A DNA stretch of 64,000 nt from Desulfuromonas sp. GTDB lineage: Bacteria > Desulfobacterota > Desulfuromonadia > Desulfuromonadales > BM501. Location of the stretch: the NCBI RefSeq assembly GCF_002868845.1, contig NZ_PKUB01000002.1:1037-65036 (forward strand). The letters are read 5' to 3'. The notes beneath the pieces were generated by a model. That model saw only the letters and a program-made list of their open reading frames with translations, did no database searches and was not told the origin of the DNA. Each line of letters begins with the position of its first letter. Position 1 is the stretch's first letter. Of the stretch, positions 2,142 to 45,782 are shown piece by piece. The position numbers and the translations under genes are program-made.

Positions 2142-3203
2142 TCAGGCTTCATCGCCGCCACCTTCCGCCAGAACCCGGTCGATGGCGGCCCGCAGGCGCG
2201 CCACCCCCTCCTGTTCCGGCTCGATATCGACCTCGATGCGCCGCTGCGGCTTGGTGTGATCGTAGAGAGGATCGTAGTAGAGGACCATGAGATCCCGCAC
2301 CAGCTCCTCCCAGCGCCCCGCCTCCAGCAGGCCGACCAGTCGCTCCACCGTCTCTCCGCCGAGGCGGGCCTTGAGGGCCCGGATGGGGGCGACGAACTGC
2401 TCCTTGAGCCGGTCCTTGGCCGGGTAGTCCTCGAGGATGACCCGGGCCCGGTACTCGAGGGAGGCCTCCACCCAGACCGAGGTCTCCACCTGCAGCGCGG
2501 CGTAGAGCCGCGGCGGCAGCACCACCCGGCCGATATGCCGGCTCTCCCCCTCGGACAGGGCGTAGCCGCCGGGCGGGATCTTCCGCAACTCGTCCCAGAG
2601 GAGGGACTCGAACATCTTCTGGGACGGCTGGGAGGGCAGCCCGAGGGCCCCGAAAGCGCTCCCCCGGTGGTTGGCCAGCCCCTCCAGGTCAAGGACCGGA
2701 TAGCCCTCATCCCGCAGCTGCAGCAGCAGCCGGGTCTTGCCCACCCCGGTCAGCCCCCGCAGCACGACCAGGCGGCCCCACGCTTCCTCCTCGAGGTAGC
2801 GGCGGACATGGGCGCGGAAGGCCTTGTGCCCCCCCTCGAGCTGGCGCGCCGGGATGCCGGCCAGGTCGAGAAAATCGGTCAGGGCGCGGCTGCGCATGCC
2901 GCCGCGCCAGCAGAATACGATCACCGGGGCCCGGGCCCCGCCGAGGGCCGCCTCCACCTGGCGAATCAGCCCGGGGATCTTGGGCGCGACCAGCTCCACC
3001 CCGAGGCGGCGGGCGTCCTTCCGGCCCTGCTCCTTGTAGACGGTGCCGATATGGGCCCGCTCCGCATCGTCGAGCAGCGGCACGTTGACCGCCCCCGGGA
3101 CCGTCGCCGCGGCGAATTCGCCCGGGGAGCGGGCGTCGACGAGAAGGGCGCCCCGCTCGCGCAGGGCGAGAGCGTCATCGATGTTTATGGTGGTAAAAGC
3201 CAT
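2142..3203 (-). CDS. selU: tRNA 2-selenouridine synthase
   Basis: 353 aa. N-terminal rhodanese domain with the CWRGGMRS active-site loop, followed by the P-loop GLTGVGKT. Length and architecture are typical of SelU/MnmH. Confidence 0.88.
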   Translation of the reverse strand: MAFTTINIDDALALRERGALLVDARSPGEFAAATVPGAVNVPLLDDAERAHIGTVYKEQGRKDARRLGVELVAPKIPGLIRQVEAALGGARAPVIVFCWRGGMRSRALTDFLDLAGIPARQLEGGHKAFRAHVRRYLEEEAWGRLVVLRGLTGVGKTRLLLQLRDEGYPVLDLEGLANHRGSAFGALGLPSQPSQKMFESLLWDELRKIPPGGYALSEGESRHIGRVVLPPRLYAALQVETSVWVEASLEYRARVILEDYPAKDRLKEQFVAPIRALKARLGGETVERLVGLLEAGRWEELVRDLMVLYYDPLYDHTKPQRRIEVDIEPEQEGVARLRAAIDRVLAEGGGDEA

Positions 3204-8776: not shown

Positions 8777-8856
8777 GGGCAGCTATCAGCCTCCTACTGA
8801 CTACTGACTCCGGCAAGTCAACTTCGGACCCTGGTTGAAGGGCCAGACAAGACACC

Positions 8857-38803: not shown

Positions 38804-39837
<1,034 letters not shown>

Positions 39838-41460: not shown

Positions 41461-41532
41461 GTAACAAGTGACGGGTAACGAGTGACGGAAAGCACCTAAA
41501 GCTTGCTCTGCTTTGCTTGTCACCCATCACCG
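41461..41532 (+). repeat. heptamer array in the nifD-nifK spacer
   Basis: GTAACAA GTGACGG GTAACGA GTGACGG (41461-41488). Inverted partial units TTGTCAC CCATCAC follow at 41517-41530. Confidence 0.7.
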
Positions 41533-43013: not shown

Positions 43014-43019
43014 AGGCAG

Positions 43020-43093
43020 TAGCGAGTGACAGGTGACGAGTGACAAGTAAAGAATGCTTTTAACTCGTCACTCGTCACTCGTCACTCGTCACT
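43020..43093 (+). repeat. inverted heptamer arrays after nifK
   Basis: TAGCGAG TGACAGG TGACGAG TGACAAG (43020-43047), a 16-nt spacer, then CTCGTCA x4 (43064-43091). CTCGTCA is the reverse complement of TGACGAG, so the two arms can form a long imperfect hairpin. Confidence 0.8.
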
Positions 43094-43166
43094 TCTCCCC
43101 GAAGGGGAAGACATGATCAGAACAAGACGTTTCGAGATCGTCGGCCCGGAGCTGAAAGGATTGACC

Positions 43167-43553
43167 ATGAAGGTGGCATTTGCCAGCACAGACAAAGTTC
43201 ATGTTGACGAGCACTTCGGCAGGGCCGAGGCGTTCTACATCTATGAAGTCGGGCCGGAAGAGGCCGAATTCACGGGCGTGCTCCAGGTCAAGACCGAAGG
43301 GGACGACGAAGCCGACCGCATCGAAGCACGCTGCGCCGGCCTCGATACCTGCGCACTGGTCTACGTCGCCCAGATCGGCGGGCCTGCTGCCGCGCGCCTG
43401 GTCCAGAAAAAGATCCACCCCATAAAGAGCAAGGAGCAGGAACCGATCACCGACGTGGTGGCCAAGCTGCAGGAGGTCCTTCGGGGCAGCCCGCCGCCCT
43501 GGCTGCGCAAGGCGATGCTCAAGAACGAGCGACCGGGGTTCCTGGACAGATGA
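43167..43553 (+). CDS. nifX: nitrogen fixation protein NifX
   Basis: MKVAFASTDKVHVDEHFGRAEAFYIYEV..., IGGPAAARLVQKKIHPIK, and a C-terminal LRGSPPPWLRKAM. The alternative upstream ATG 43113 cannot be excluded. Confidence 0.8.
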   Translation: MKVAFASTDKVHVDEHFGRAEAFYIYEVGPEEAEFTGVLQVKTEGDDEADRIEARCAGLDTCALVYVAQIGGPAAARLVQKKIHPIKSKEQEPITDVVAKLQEVLRGSPPPWLRKAMLKNERPGFLDR

Positions 43554-43643
43554 CAATGTAGGGGCGATCCTTGTGATCGCCCGGAACGCGGAGGGCGAAT
43601 AGGAGATTCGCCCCTACACGCCACAATCATAAGGAGAAGTACC

Positions 43644-43913
43644 ATGGCTTACCTGACCGGCAAGACCAAGGGCGGCGCCGACTGGACCCCCACCTTCGTC
43701 GAGGCGATCGACCACGAAAAGTGCATCGGCTGCGGCCGCTGCTACAAAGCCTGCTCCCGCAAAGTGCTGGGGCCCTTCGATCTGGAGGACGAGGAGTCCG
43801 AATCGATCCGCATGGTCATGGAGATCGTCAAGAACGATGCCTGCATCGGCTGCGCCGGCTGCGGGGTGACCTGCAGCAAGAAGGCCTTCTCCTTCAAGCC
43901 GATGGAAGTCTAA
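43644..43913 (+). CDS. nif-specific ferredoxin III (2x[4Fe-4S])
   Basis: 89 aa. WTPTFVEAIDHEKCIGCGRCYKAC...RMVMEIVKNDACIGCAGCGVTC. RBS AAGGAGAAG. Confidence 0.85.
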   Translation: MAYLTGKTKGGADWTPTFVEAIDHEKCIGCGRCYKACSRKVLGPFDLEDEESESIRMVMEIVKNDACIGCAGCGVTCSKKAFSFKPMEV

Positions 43914-43965
43914 GAAAGCTGCAAGCTGTCAGTTTGCTGCTATCAGCTTTTAGTCTCAAAACCTT

Positions 43966-44073
43966 GACAACTGACAACTGACAACTGACAACTGACAACT
44001 GACAACTGACAACTGACAACTGACAACTGACAACTGACAACTGACAACTGACAACTGATAGCTGATAGCTGAC
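43966..44073 (+). repeat. perfect tandem heptamer array: GACAACT x13 then GATAGCT x2
   Basis: I counted unit starts at 43966, 43973, ... 44050 (13 identical copies), then 44057 and 44064 (GATAGCT). The array ends 15 nt before ATG 44089. Inverted single units (TGTCAGTT, GCTATCAGC) lie at 43927-43949. Confidence 0.95.
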
Positions 44074-44088
44074 CGAAGGGAGTTCACC

Positions 44089-44472
44089 ATGCTCATCGCC
44101 GTCGCATCGAAAAACGGCACCGAGGTCGACCAGCACTTCGGCCATGCCTAGCGGTTCCTGATCTACGACTTCAAAAAGGGCAACCCCAGGCAGGTCAAGG
44201 AAGTGCAGGTGGAGAAATACTGTTCCTTCGACCCCGACCACCCCTTCCGCCACGAACAGTTCAACGCCATCGTTGCGGCCCTGGACGGCTGCAGAGCGGT
44301 GGTCACCGCCCAGATCGGCGAGTTGCCGAAGCAGGAACTTCAGAAAGCCGGCATGGTCGCGGTCAATGCCTCCGGGCCGATCATCCCGGCTCTGCAGGCG
44401 GCCCATGACGCGGCATGCGGATGCGGCTGCAAAAAGCCGTCCCCCGACGGCCCCTGCCCTCACTCGGCCTGA
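44089..44472 (+). pseudogene. NifX/NifB-C-terminal-like FeMo-cofactor-binding domain protein interrupted by in-frame TAG at 44149-44151
   Basis: RBS GAAGGGAG, then ATG 44089. MLIAVASKNGTEVDQHFGHA, then TAG. The same frame continues RFLIYDFKKGNP... and joins ORF 44203..44472. HFGHAxxFxIY is the family hallmark. Confidence 0.75.
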
Positions 44473-44703
44473 TTCAATAAGAATCCGCCCTCGAACGACT
44501 TTGGAGACTTTCCCCTTTCAGCTCCTGCCGAAAAAAGGGACTTTCCAGAGATGCAATTGCCTTTGGCATGGGCAGGGAGGATCAGAGGGGTCCTTCCTGC
44601 CTCCTTTTTTTCGGGCGACTGTATTCGCCCACTGCCGCCTCGGCGCCCGAAAAGGCCCGTCTTGACGGGGATTGACGGAATGGGCCGGCCCCATCGGCCC
44701 ACT

Positions 44704-44719
44704 TGGCACGACTGATGCT
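44704..44719 (+). promoter_or_regulatory. sigma-54 (-24/-12) type promoter upstream of nifB
   Basis: TGGCAC-GACTG-ATGCT with canonical GG/GC spacing. About 195 nt upstream of the nifB ATG. Confidence 0.55.
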
Positions 44720-44912: not shown

Positions 44913-45782
44913 ATGGCCACCGGATGCCCGATGATGAAAGCCAAGAGACAGACCGACCACCCCTGCTTCGGCGGGGACCACGCCAATACCGGCCGCATCC
45001 ACCTGCCGGTGGCGCCGGGCTGCAATATCAAGTGCGGCTTCTGCGAGCGCAAGTTCGACTGCGCCAACGAGAGCCGCCCCGGGGTGACCAGCCAGATCCT
45101 TTCCCCCGAGCAGGCCCTGGAGCGGGTGCGACTGGTCAGCCGCCACCCCAAGGTCGGCGGCAAGTTGAAAGTCGTCGGCATCGCAGGTCCCGGCGACCCC
45201 CTGGCCAACCCGAAGACCTTCGAGACGTTCGAACTGGTCAGGGAGGCCTTTCCGCAGATGCACCTCTGCCTCTCCACCAACGGCCTGCTCCTCACCGAGC
45301 ACCTCGACCGCCTGCTGAGCCTCGGCGTCCACAGCGTCACCGTGACCGTCAACGCCCTGACCCCCGAGACCGGGGCGAAGGTCTACGAGTGGGTCCGCCA
45401 CGGCGATGTGCGGCTCGAGGGCGAAGCGGGCGCGGCCCTGCTGCTCAAGCGGCAGTTCGAGGGAATCCGCTATGCGGCGGCCGCCGGCATGATGGTCAAG
45501 GTCAACTCGGTCTACATCCCCGGCGTCAACGACCACGAGACCCTCGACCTGGCCGTCAAGGTCCGCGACCTCGGCGCCGACGTCATGAACATCATCCCGA
45601 TGATCCCGCTCGGAATCTTCAAGGGACTCGAACCCCCGAGCGATGTCGTCATGGAGATGGTGCGCAACAAGGCCGAGCTGATCCTCGCCCAGGCGCGCCA
45701 CTGCAAGCAGTGCCGGGCCGATGCCGCCGGGCTGGTCGGCCAGGACCTCGACCTGGAAGAACTGCACGCCCAGGCCAGCTGA
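44913..45782 (+). CDS. nifB: FeMo-cofactor biosynthesis radical SAM protein NifB (short form, no C-terminal NifX-like domain)
   Basis: 289 aa after AAAGGAGAA. HPCFGGDHANTGRIHLPVAPGCNIKCGFC (CxxxCxxC), GIAGPGDPLAN, LSTNGLLL, TVTVNA, CKQCRADA. Confidence 0.9.
   Translation: MATGCPMMKAKRQTDHPCFGGDHANTGRIHLPVAPGCNIKCGFCERKFDCANESRPGVTSQILSPEQALERVRLVSRHPKVGGKLKVVGIAGPGDPLANPKTFETFELVREAFPQMHLCLSTNGLLLTEHLDRLLSLGVHSVTVTVNALTPETGAKVYEWVRHGDVRLEGEAGAALLLKRQFEGIRYAAAAGMMVKVNSVYIPGVNDHETLDLAVKVRDLGADVMNIIPMIPLGIFKGLEPPSDVVMEMVRNKAELILAQARHCKQCRADAAGLVGQDLDLEELHAQAS

Follow-up and report, generated by a model that had tools for sequence, protein, structure and literature searches.

The stretch analysed here is a 64,000-nt segment of contig NZ_PKUB01000002.1 from Desulfuromonas sp. 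(the window, whose numbering is used throughout), and the subject is a tandem heptanucleotide array that lies between two genes of its nitrogen fixation (nif) cluster. The gene order is nifH (38956–39837), nifD, nifK, nifX (43113–43553, TIGR02663), fdxN, the array, nifX2, a radical-SAM nifB, modE and molybdate-transporter (mod)-like genes; nifK is up to 92% identical to that of metagenome-assembled genomes (MAGs) of Trichloromonas and Desulfuromonas (Desulfuromonadales). On the 5′ side of the array, fdxN (43644–43913, + strand, stop codon TAA at 43911–43913) encodes the nif-specific ferredoxin III (NCBIfam TIGR02936, 96.4 bits against a cut-off of 80.55). On its 3′ side, nifX2 (44089–44472, + strand) is the last cistron and encodes 127 residues with a stand-alone NifX/NifB-C-terminal-like domain for binding of the iron-molybdenum cofactor (FeMo-cofactor; Pfam PF02579, NCBIfam TIGR01290 positions 331–426). 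By its sequence context the array is intercistronic, ahead of the last gene of a putative nifHDK-nifX-fdxN-nifX2 transcription unit, because sequence scans found no promoter-like or terminator-like site in the array spacer, because a terminator-like hairpin with a T-run (44570–44612, + strand, consensus scan only) follows ∼100 nt past nifX2 as the likely end of the unit, and because a sigma-54-type promoter-like element, TGGCACGACTGATGCT (44704–44719, + strand, motif scan), stands ahead of the radical-SAM nifB; the sigma-54-type motif matches at 2 places in the window, for an expectation of 0.09. None of the public RNA runs holds the organism, the shared words (≤8%) coming from conserved nifH and nifD of other taxa. 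What is said below about function is deduced from sequence, and the view at genome level is that of the 64-kb window.

The array begins with an exact run of 13 GACAACT units (43966–44056, + strand), which is followed by two GATAGCT units (44057–44070) and by GAC up to position 44073, the last 17 nt forming a degenerate 3′ edge. Written in the register that ends on TGA the array reads GA(CAACTGA)13(TAGCTGA)2C. Tandem Repeats Finder reports it at 43965–44073 with period 7, 15.6 copies and a score of 190, by far the strongest tandem repeat of the window, and outside the array the + strand of these 64 kb contains no GACAACT. Its G+C content is 43.5% compared with 65% for the window; C outnumbers G by 29 to 18, and as the CAACTGA unit has one G per 7 nt the array RNA is G-poor, and the core is predicted to be unstructured. 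The distance from the last TGA to the ATG of nifX2 (44089–44091) is 16 nt, leaving a gap of 15 nt after the array in which a Shine-Dalgarno sequence, GAAGGGAG (44075–44082, + strand), is located 6 nt ahead of the ATG and would be left free by the array (modelled accessibility 0.43). Each of the forward frames contains 5–6 stop codons, the first within 7 codons, and all three reverse frames are open. As the reverse complement of the array is free of stops, it gives rise to a spurious open reading frame (ORF) of 189 residues with SCQLSVV repeats on the − strand (43894–44463). An initial sequence-only reading of this DNA had reported the 13 copies, their position and the flanking genes, as well as the closed forward frames and the artefactual reverse ORF; the repeat search, the family assignments (TIGR02936 and Nitro_FeMo-Co/NifB-C-terminal-like) and a frame scan agree with it on all of these. 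An Rfam scan of the whole window at gathering thresholds returned tRNA only.

Three other assemblies carry an identical ferredoxin. A JGI contig (L122), which differs from the window by 9 single-nucleotide polymorphisms (SNPs) per 3.5 kb, has 13 units as well; in a 404-kb ENA contig (L121), with 6 SNPs per 8.3 kb, the number is 8, and a Logan contig of the locus breaks after 4 units, which k = 31 would lead one to expect. An estimate without reliance on any assembly comes from run X1, a bioreactor metagenome; no other public run contains the locus. The unitig of pure-repeat 31-mers reaches a depth of 3175–3200 compared with 321–368 for the unique flanks, a ratio of ∼8.7–9.9. The ratio expected for n copies at k = 31 is n − 30/7, therefore n is ∼13–14, and the depth of the pure repeat fits a single locus of that length. 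The array is not an assembly artefact. A mis-assembled or inflated array might be suspected since short-read assemblers break or collapse at this sequence, as seen in the Logan contig and in the assembly with 8 units; however, two assemblies with different SNPs both contain 13 copies and the depth ratio points to 13–14, and we consider this explanation to be extremely improbable. The recent slipped-strand expansion that had been proposed from the identity of the units, with a comparison of copy numbers as a check, is plausible in view of a perfect core with degenerate edges and of assemblies that disagree in copy number (13 copies in the window and L122, 8 in L121). At window position 43996 one contig of run X1 leaves the repeat into unrelated sequence (GCCTGCATTCAAAGG...), and therefore a second locus with a GACAACT repeat is present in that metagenome community. 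An exact search of metagenome contigs for the 3′ junction of the array gave 0 matches, and a metagenome scan based on the ferredoxin found no contig of the same species, the best match being 81% identical.

The periodicity is not restricted to the array itself. Positions 43917–43951 (+ strand) consist of five consecutive, in-phase degenerate inverted heptamers (AGCTGCA, AGCTGTC, AGTTTGC, TGCTATC and AGCTTTT) each 1–3 mismatches away from AGTTGTC or AGCTATC, the array units in reverse complement; 0 of 20,000 shuffles match as well. Together with a two-unit linker, AGTCTCA AAACCTT (43952–43965, + strand), which is part of the predicted loop, the spacer from 43917 to 44072 forms a single 7-nt register of a short decayed inverted arm, the linker and a 15-unit forward arm. 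The array is the over-expanded 3′ arm of a lopsided inverted-heptamer module. Within the inverted arm, TGTCAGTT (43927–43934) finds its complement AACTGACA 12 times in the array and GCTATCAGC (43939–43947) finds its complement GCTGATAGC once. Single inverted units had been noted before at these two places, the first correctly and the second one base off, and had been expected to give stem-loops of variable register. The pairing is real, but it is thermodynamically weak: the minimum free energy (MFE) of the spacer RNA is −32.9 kcal/mol compared with −28.2 ± 3.4 kcal/mol for shuffled sequences (z = −1.39), an equally good fold is reached by 17 of 200 shuffles, the MFE structure makes up a fraction of 0.0012 of the ensemble, and hardly any pairs are left in the centroid, so that no stable structure is predicted.

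Two sister modules are found in the same cluster. In the nifK–nifX spacer (43014–43112) the repeats (AGTGACA/GGTGACG)x3.4, a loop and (ACTCGTC)x4.4 (43025–43093, + strand) fold into a near-perfect hairpin of −53 kcal/mol (z = −7.4), and the unit GTGACAA is one substitution away from CTGACAA. Next comes another, small hairpin (CUUCUCCCCGAAGGGGAAG), which overlaps the ribosome-binding region. The nifD–nifK spacer carries GTAACAA GTGACGG GTAACGA GTGACGG ... TTGTCAC CCATCAC (41461–41530, + strand). A scan of the window for tandem units of the family [CG]T[GA]A[CT][AG][AGC] found them confined to three nif spacers, namely both arms in nifD–nifK, both arms in nifK–nifX and the array, bar one 2-unit chance match inside nifK. 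The palindromes GGGGCGATCCTTGTGATCGCCC and GGGCGAATAGGAGATTCGCCC in the nifX–fdxN spacer (43559–43620) resemble repetitive extragenic palindromes (REP-like) and are not based on heptamers. In another spacer (CTACTGA)x2.3 (8783–8809) directly follows AGCTATCAGC, and nearly the same motif, TGCTATCAGC, stands upstream of the nif array; this short repeat possibly represents another, minor array of the CTGA-core family.

We compared the nif spacers of relatives at 80 nifK loci of Desulfuromonadales and Geobacterales (914 kb), in which these spacers make up 4.8% of the bases. They contain 37 of the 67 period-7 arrays, 23 of the 48 period-8 arrays and 19 of the 30 period-14 arrays, and essentially none of the arrays with periods 6, 9 and 12, which lie mostly in coding DNA. 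The baseline of this enrichment is all bases, which are mostly coding, and not other intergenic DNA, and for this reason a specificity of heptamer arrays for nif is not established. The units vary among genomes (GTGAGGA, GTGATTG/CCAATCA, CCGTGAT/GATCACC, AGGGGCA/CCTTGAC and others), and one unit family per genome recurs in several nif spacers, mostly in the form of paired complementary arms. The predicted folding of such spacers is strong, with a median z of −3 to −4. A Geopsychrobacteraceae MAG (L150, 4977–5154) contains (AGTGACR)x20 with a 3-unit inverted arm in its fdxN–nifX2 spacer; its unit is that of the nifK–nifX hairpin of the window. Near the nif clusters of two other genomes we observed further long and perfect arrays of short period, a 14-mer repeated 22.9 times that runs into the contig end (Geobacteraceae MAG L200, 11666–11985) and (ACGGTTC)x7.3 (Pelovirga terrestris, L173, 10080–10130). 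About a third of the GTDB relatives have an fdxN–nifX2 spacer of 11–40 nt with a Shine-Dalgarno sequence and no repeats, and the same holds for the metagenome relatives with the most similar ferredoxin (80–81% identity). As judged from these sequences, the inverted-heptamer module is a common and fast-turnover component of Desulfuromonadales nif spacers, and a dispensable one, because about a third of the relatives lack any module between fdxN and nifX2.

A mechanistic precedent for repeats that form a hairpin arm exists in Haemophilus influenzae, where the transcribed (ATCTTTC)n repeats of hmw1A and hmw2A, whose number varies by slippage, form one arm of a 5′ untranslated region hairpin that is cut by RNase III, and expression is inverse to repeat length (PMC12721329). 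By analogy, the array might pair with the inverted arm and be cut by RNase III or another nuclease, so that copy number would set the yield of nifX2 and feed back on instability of the repeat. The two loci resemble each other in a heptamer array upstream of a coding region and in an arm made of repeats, which at our locus may pair with a complementary arm; the copy numbers of 13, 13 and 8 in three assemblies of our locus may reflect variation in length, the 8 being possibly a collapse. The in-register complementary arm, the long RNase III-suitable duplexes of the sister spacers such as the nifK–nifX hairpin, and the fact that the sense strand of fdxN–nifX2 spacers folds better than the antisense strand in 18 of 20 genomes speak for such a rheostat. 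However, hmw concerns a phase-variable adhesin of a host-adapted bacterium with its own promoter and a stable long hairpin, whereas our array is intercistronic and its hairpin is predicted to be weak: the duplex of the array spacer is short and interrupted (blocks of 8–10 bp), folds like shuffled sequence with a diffuse ensemble, and leaves 13 of the 15 array units without a partner. When all nif spacers were considered, there was no bias between sense and antisense folding (135 versus 125). We therefore regard cleavage control of this type as improbable at the array. A comparison of the bases in the two arms of the spacer hairpins showed only a modest purine excess in the 5′ arm (3739 versus 2972 pairs).

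The array has its closest description in the TAACTGA direct repeats that MacGregor reported in 2015 from Beggiatoaceae, Thiocystis, Cyanobacteria and Bacteroidetes (Front Microbiol 6:1397, PMC4679880). In Maribeggiatoa, 147 of the 170 TAACTGA sets of Table 1 in that study aim at a start codon, and they mostly end 1 nt upstream of it without a ribosome-binding site; their RNA is predicted to be unstructured, the forward frames are closed and the reverse frames open, and S1, Csp and CsrA were proposed as possible readers (PMC4679880). CAACTGA appears in Table 3 of the same study among the one-base variants, its reverse peptide given as SVVSCQL, and for six forward CAACTGA repeats the table predicts ‘one pair, +3.1 kcal’ (PMC4679880). 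The window array shares with these repeats the intergenic position, the head-to-tail arrangement of CTGA-core heptamers (15 units on the sense strand of nifX2, directed towards its start), the predicted lack of RNA structure, and the stops in all forward frames with the reverse frames open. It differs in its units (CAACTGA x13 and TAGCTGA x2, each a single-base variant), in its canonical Shine-Dalgarno sequence GAAGGGAG where most sets of the orange Guaymas Maribeggiatoa genome (BOGUAY) end 1 nt upstream of the start without one, in its 13–15 units compared with 2–6 in BOGUAY, in the degenerate inverted arm upstream, and in a lineage and a nif-operon context that were not reported there. The repeats of MacGregor occur in many sets per genome. 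Within the 64-kb window the GACAACT array is found once; the depth in run X1 would fit a single locus of 13–14 copies, and one contig of that metagenome points to a second locus with the repeat. From its sequence, the array is a one-base variant of the start-proximal TAACTGA repeats in a new lineage and a nif context, and not a new kind of element. The earlier statement that nothing of this sort was described for the lineage was too strong, both because of this listing of the unit itself (PMC4679880) and because tandem hepta- and octanucleotides have been catalogued in Geobacter (PMC2700814, PMC2996986). Our search of the literature on heptamer and STRR (short tandemly repeated repetitive) sequences found nothing directly on nif spacers in the Desulfuromonadales lineage.

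We then searched a collection of species-representative genomes for exact (GACAACT)x4, assigning phyla by record title; the counts are lower bounds, and the distributions given below hold among the matches listed. At least 120 genomes of ∼12 phyla contain the repeat, with at least (about) 43 in Cyanobacteria (including Calothrix, Dolichospermum, Anabaena and Microcoleus), at least 26 in Acidobacteriota, at least 15 in Planctomycetota, at least 12 in Bacteroidota, at least 8 in Gammaproteobacteria (including Thiocystis and Thiorhodococcus), at least 6 in Chloroflexota, at least 2 in Desulfobacterota and a few in others. Copy numbers range from 4 to 19, and most arrays have 4–6 units. For 95 arrays far enough from contig ends we determined the orientation relative to neighbouring genes: a gene starts within 80 nt downstream in the GACAACT sense for 57 arrays compared with 16 for the opposite orientation, within 16 nt the numbers are 36 and 5, and 48 arrays are sense-only compared with 7 that are antisense-only. 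Genuine genes follow the arrays, their ORFs opening at the beginning of a Pfam domain, and their products include ClpB, AtpA, ribosomal protein S5 (RpsE), MinD, UreG/HypB, adenylate kinase (Adk) and RelA/SpoT. A special link of the array to nif was not established; in other genomes the unit stands ahead of clpB, atpA, rpsE, adk, minD and others. Arrays lie 0–11 nt ahead of rpsE in two genera of Nostocales (L047 and L110, 5 and 7 copies) and of atpA in two other cyanobacteria (L039 and L070, 5 and 9 copies), and these orthologous positions seem, on sequence grounds, to be kept across genera. In five genomes (L012, L023, L025, L038 and L054) GATAACT, which is TAACTGA in the other register, and GACAACT are mixed in single arrays, therefore the family boundary is soft. 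One of them, a deltaproteobacterial MAG (L025, 650–874), has the order nifI2, (TCAGTTR)x5, 130 nt, (GACAACT)5 GATAACT (GACAACT)2, 35 nt and nifD, and so presents the unit of the window together with an inverted-arm architecture in a second nif operon. An inverted arm was found upstream of 30 of 98 arrays and downstream of 1 of 98; we discounted this polarity as independent evidence because the arrays abut start codons and the downstream side is coding sequence. The window spacer shares with the flanks of GACAACT arrays in other phyla only chance-level matches of 10–14 nt (E ≥ 0.1), and therefore there is no evidence for horizontal transfer of a larger module.

One alternative is an active role of the repeat, as a translational or post-transcriptional operator. 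According to this model, which was proposed by MacGregor for the TAACTGA repeats, 147 of 170 Maribeggiatoa sets being directed at a start (PMC4679880), xAACTGA units in the mRNA would be bound by a protein (S1, a cold-shock-domain protein or another) that recruits or excludes ribosomes, and nifX2 would belong to a repeat-marked regulon. The preference of the exact CAACTGA unit for the sense strand close to starts in many phyla, the mixing of TAACTGA and CAACTGA within single arrays and the recurrence ahead of rpsE and atpA in different genera are consistent with such a reader, and in Nostoc, where heptamers abut start codons, deletion of heptamers next to the recO start alters the response of a reporter (preprint, bioRxiv 10.1101/2022.06.06.494920). 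However, a binding protein has been identified in no organism, and nifX2 has a canonical Shine-Dalgarno sequence of its own downstream of the array, so that ribosome binding does not require the repeat. In close relatives the fdxN–nifX2 spacer is free of repeats, others have unrelated units there (GTGATTG, AAAGGTT, GGGGCAA and others), which argues against one conserved reader, and the k-mer depth suggests that the genome has no other long CAACTGA array. We consider the operator unlikely for nifX2, although it is the alternative that we take most seriously.

Two further models were considered. In Geobacter metallireducens, paired tandem hepta- and octanucleotide sites, often on opposite strands, were read by Aklujkar et al. 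as sites of an IHF/HU-type global regulator (PMC2700814), and direct repeats of 6–42 nt occur between genes of G. bemidjiensis (PMC2996986). These sites resemble our module in the order-level lineage, in tandem intergenic units of 7–9 nt that are mostly paired on opposite strands, also within an operon (proBA), and in one class with a CTGA core, MTYCTGA x5. CAACTGA departs from this class 3 at 2 positions and shares with it the CTGA core and the first base, and in the window the opposite-strand pairing is degenerate; the Geobacter sites have 3–5 units per arm compared with 13–15, were interpreted as DNA-binding sites and were not reported for nif spacers. The array could accordingly be a DNA-level element, either a set of sites for nucleoid proteins such as IHF and HU or a hotspot of recombination or replication slippage that has no role in RNA, and the overall lack of a bias between sense and antisense folding fits strand-symmetric DNA palindromes. 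Such an element would hardly explain the bias in strand and position (48 sense-only versus 7 antisense-only arrays), least of all inside rpsE or atpA operons, and the IHF/HU reading of the Geobacter sites is itself an interpretation; we judge it very improbable. The second model is a loading site for Rho, where 108 nt of untranslated and unstructured RNA with more C than G would attenuate transcription before nifX2. The base composition, the absence of stable structure, the length above ∼80 nt and the lack of translation would suit Rho. Primary binding sites of Rho prefer YC dinucleotides. However, the unit contains none (its dinucleotides are GA, AC, CA, AA, AC, CU and UG), GACAACT repeats precede essential and highly expressed genes in other bacteria, and most arrays elsewhere, with their 4–6 units, are too short for Rho, which leaves this model with very little credibility.

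What the forward orientation might offer was approached by composition and by modelling of the initiation region. Among 57 start-adjacent heptamer arrays of other units the sense strand is G-poor as well (14.6% G; C exceeds G in 41 arrays and G exceeds C in 12). The closing of frames by TGA is not supported as a general reason for such arrays, since 27 have a stop-bearing unit on the sense strand and 34 on the antisense strand; the property that is general among start-adjacent heptamer arrays is the scarcity of G on the sense strand. The modelled probability of being unpaired in the region from −20 to +12 stays at 0.43–0.45 over 0 to 30 forward units, compared with 0.42 ± 0.035 for random inserts of 65% G+C and 0.437 ± 0.022 for shuffled arrays. 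An opening of the ribosome site by the array as a thermodynamic effect was therefore rejected, as accessibility does not respond to copy number and random inserts perform equally well. The reverse complement of the array lowers the modelled accessibility of the Shine-Dalgarno sequence to 0.15. The forward array is thus predicted to be harmless rather than helpful to initiation, and the reverse orientation is predicted to be harmful.

Other known heptamers are similar in kind. The sequence-only reading had pointed to the STRR sequences of cyanobacteria, and the likeness is right insofar as both are tandemly amplified heptanucleotides in non-coding spacers. The consensus units of STRR1–3 given by Mazel et al. 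in 1990 are reportedly CCCCAGT, TTGGTCA and CAACAGT, and none of them can be obtained from GACAACT by rotation or reverse complementation. The STRR hosts are (heterocystous) cyanobacteria with ∼100 copies per genome, in contrast to the Desulfuromonadales host of the window. Cyanobacterial STRR heptamers are intergenic or intercistronic and can often form hairpins, for example between hupS and hupL, for which roles in transcript stability or translational coupling were suggested (PMC2670836). Among simple sequence repeats of bacteria, heptamers are over-represented, possibly by polymerase slippage; GGGAATC in Xanthomonas and GGGGAYT in Nostoc are intergenic, comprise 2–26 units, occur partly as inverted pairs and differ widely in length and sequence between close species, and (GGGGATT)26 lies inside an operon between pecE and pecF (PMC4692102). 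Over-representation in intergenic DNA and the occurrence of inverted pairs are common to these repeats and ours, but they are G-rich and prone to form quadruplexes, whereas the window array is G-poor and predicted to be unstructured.

With somewhat better than even confidence we interpret the array as a transcribed heptamer microsatellite driven by slippage, in which the 3′ arm of an inverted module has expanded and which is retained as an orientation-constrained, G-poor, unstructured and stop-rich leader and has a modest effect at most. It would lengthen and shorten by slipped-strand mispairing and would persist only in the orientation that is harmless or mildly helpful to initiation at the next cistron: RNA of the forward array would be unable to pair with the Shine-Dalgarno sequence, and its reverse complement would sequester it. 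As such it would act as a passive, unstructured spacer or standby leader that uncouples translation of nifX2 from that of fdxN, and the copy number would have a modest effect on expression at most rather than being an essential signal. Several points weigh against this microsatellite interpretation. A passive element poorly explains why a unit family is reused across spacers within a genome and why orthologous arrays are found ahead of rpsE and atpA in cyanobacteria of different genera; these patterns would rather suggest a reader acting in trans, or else copying and pasting of the repeats. The allele with 8 copies could be genuine, or it could result from collapse in a short-read assembly. 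Transcription through the array, processing and effects on translation are all inferred from sequence. In the model, finally, the forward array gains no accessibility over random or shuffled inserts (0.449 compared with 0.42 and 0.437), and because of this any helpful effect on initiation has to be argued from the orientation bias.

Further features of the nif region lie outside the array. Between 38644 and 38850, ahead of nifH, a sigma-54-type element TGGCAC-N5-CTGCT can be read from the sequence and is followed by two terminator-like hairpins with T-runs in the leader. This arrangement recalls the antitermination control that is said to operate on Geobacter nif genes. The nifB gene looks split and permuted, as the C-terminal domain (TIGR01290 positions 331–426) is encoded by 44089–44472, upstream of the radical-SAM part at 44913–45782, which matches TIGR01290 positions 7–281, the N-terminal 280 residues of NifB; the two halves are ∼440 nt apart, with the terminator-like hairpin and the sigma-54-like promoter in the gap. 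Within nifX2 the window has an in-frame TAG (44149–44151, with T at 44149) inside the conserved motif HFGHAERF, where L121, L122 and run X1 (depth 368) have GAG for Glu. This codon reflects either a nonsense mutation private to the strain or an error of sequencing. Other differences private to the window include transversions at 45669, 45687, 45802 and 46717.

The over-representation of heptamers in intergenic DNA of bacteria has been known since 1990–2007, while Haemophilus hmw alone has a tested mechanism. To this the present locus adds an example of the CTGA-core class from Desulfuromonadales and from a nif operon, evidence that inverted-heptamer modules are regular, dispensable and fast-changing in the nif spacers of this order, and evidence that the exact unit is found in some twelve phyla, where it strongly tends to lie on the sense strand close to a start codon. 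For annotation, the array flags both a spurious reverse ORF of 189 residues and a repeat that short-read assemblers break or collapse. Since xAACTGA-type forward arrays span Cyanobacteria, Acidobacteriota, Planctomycetota, Bacteroidota, Chloroflexota, Gammaproteobacteria and Desulfuromonadales among the matches listed, a bolder and in our view rather doubtful proposal is that they constitute a cross-phylum, cis-acting mRNA signal read by a conserved single-strand RNA-binding protein (footprint of ∼7 nt, of the S1 or cold-shock-domain type), with a change from 8 to 13 copies acting as a heritable rheostat for a NifB-C-terminal-like cofactor carrier. If this were true, slippage would tune the assembly of FeMo-cofactor. 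Many of the relatives compared are uncultured MAGs, but some relatives among Desulfuromonadales and Geobacter are in culture with inducible nif genes, and any of them with such a module would offer a practical test ground for the function of these repeats.

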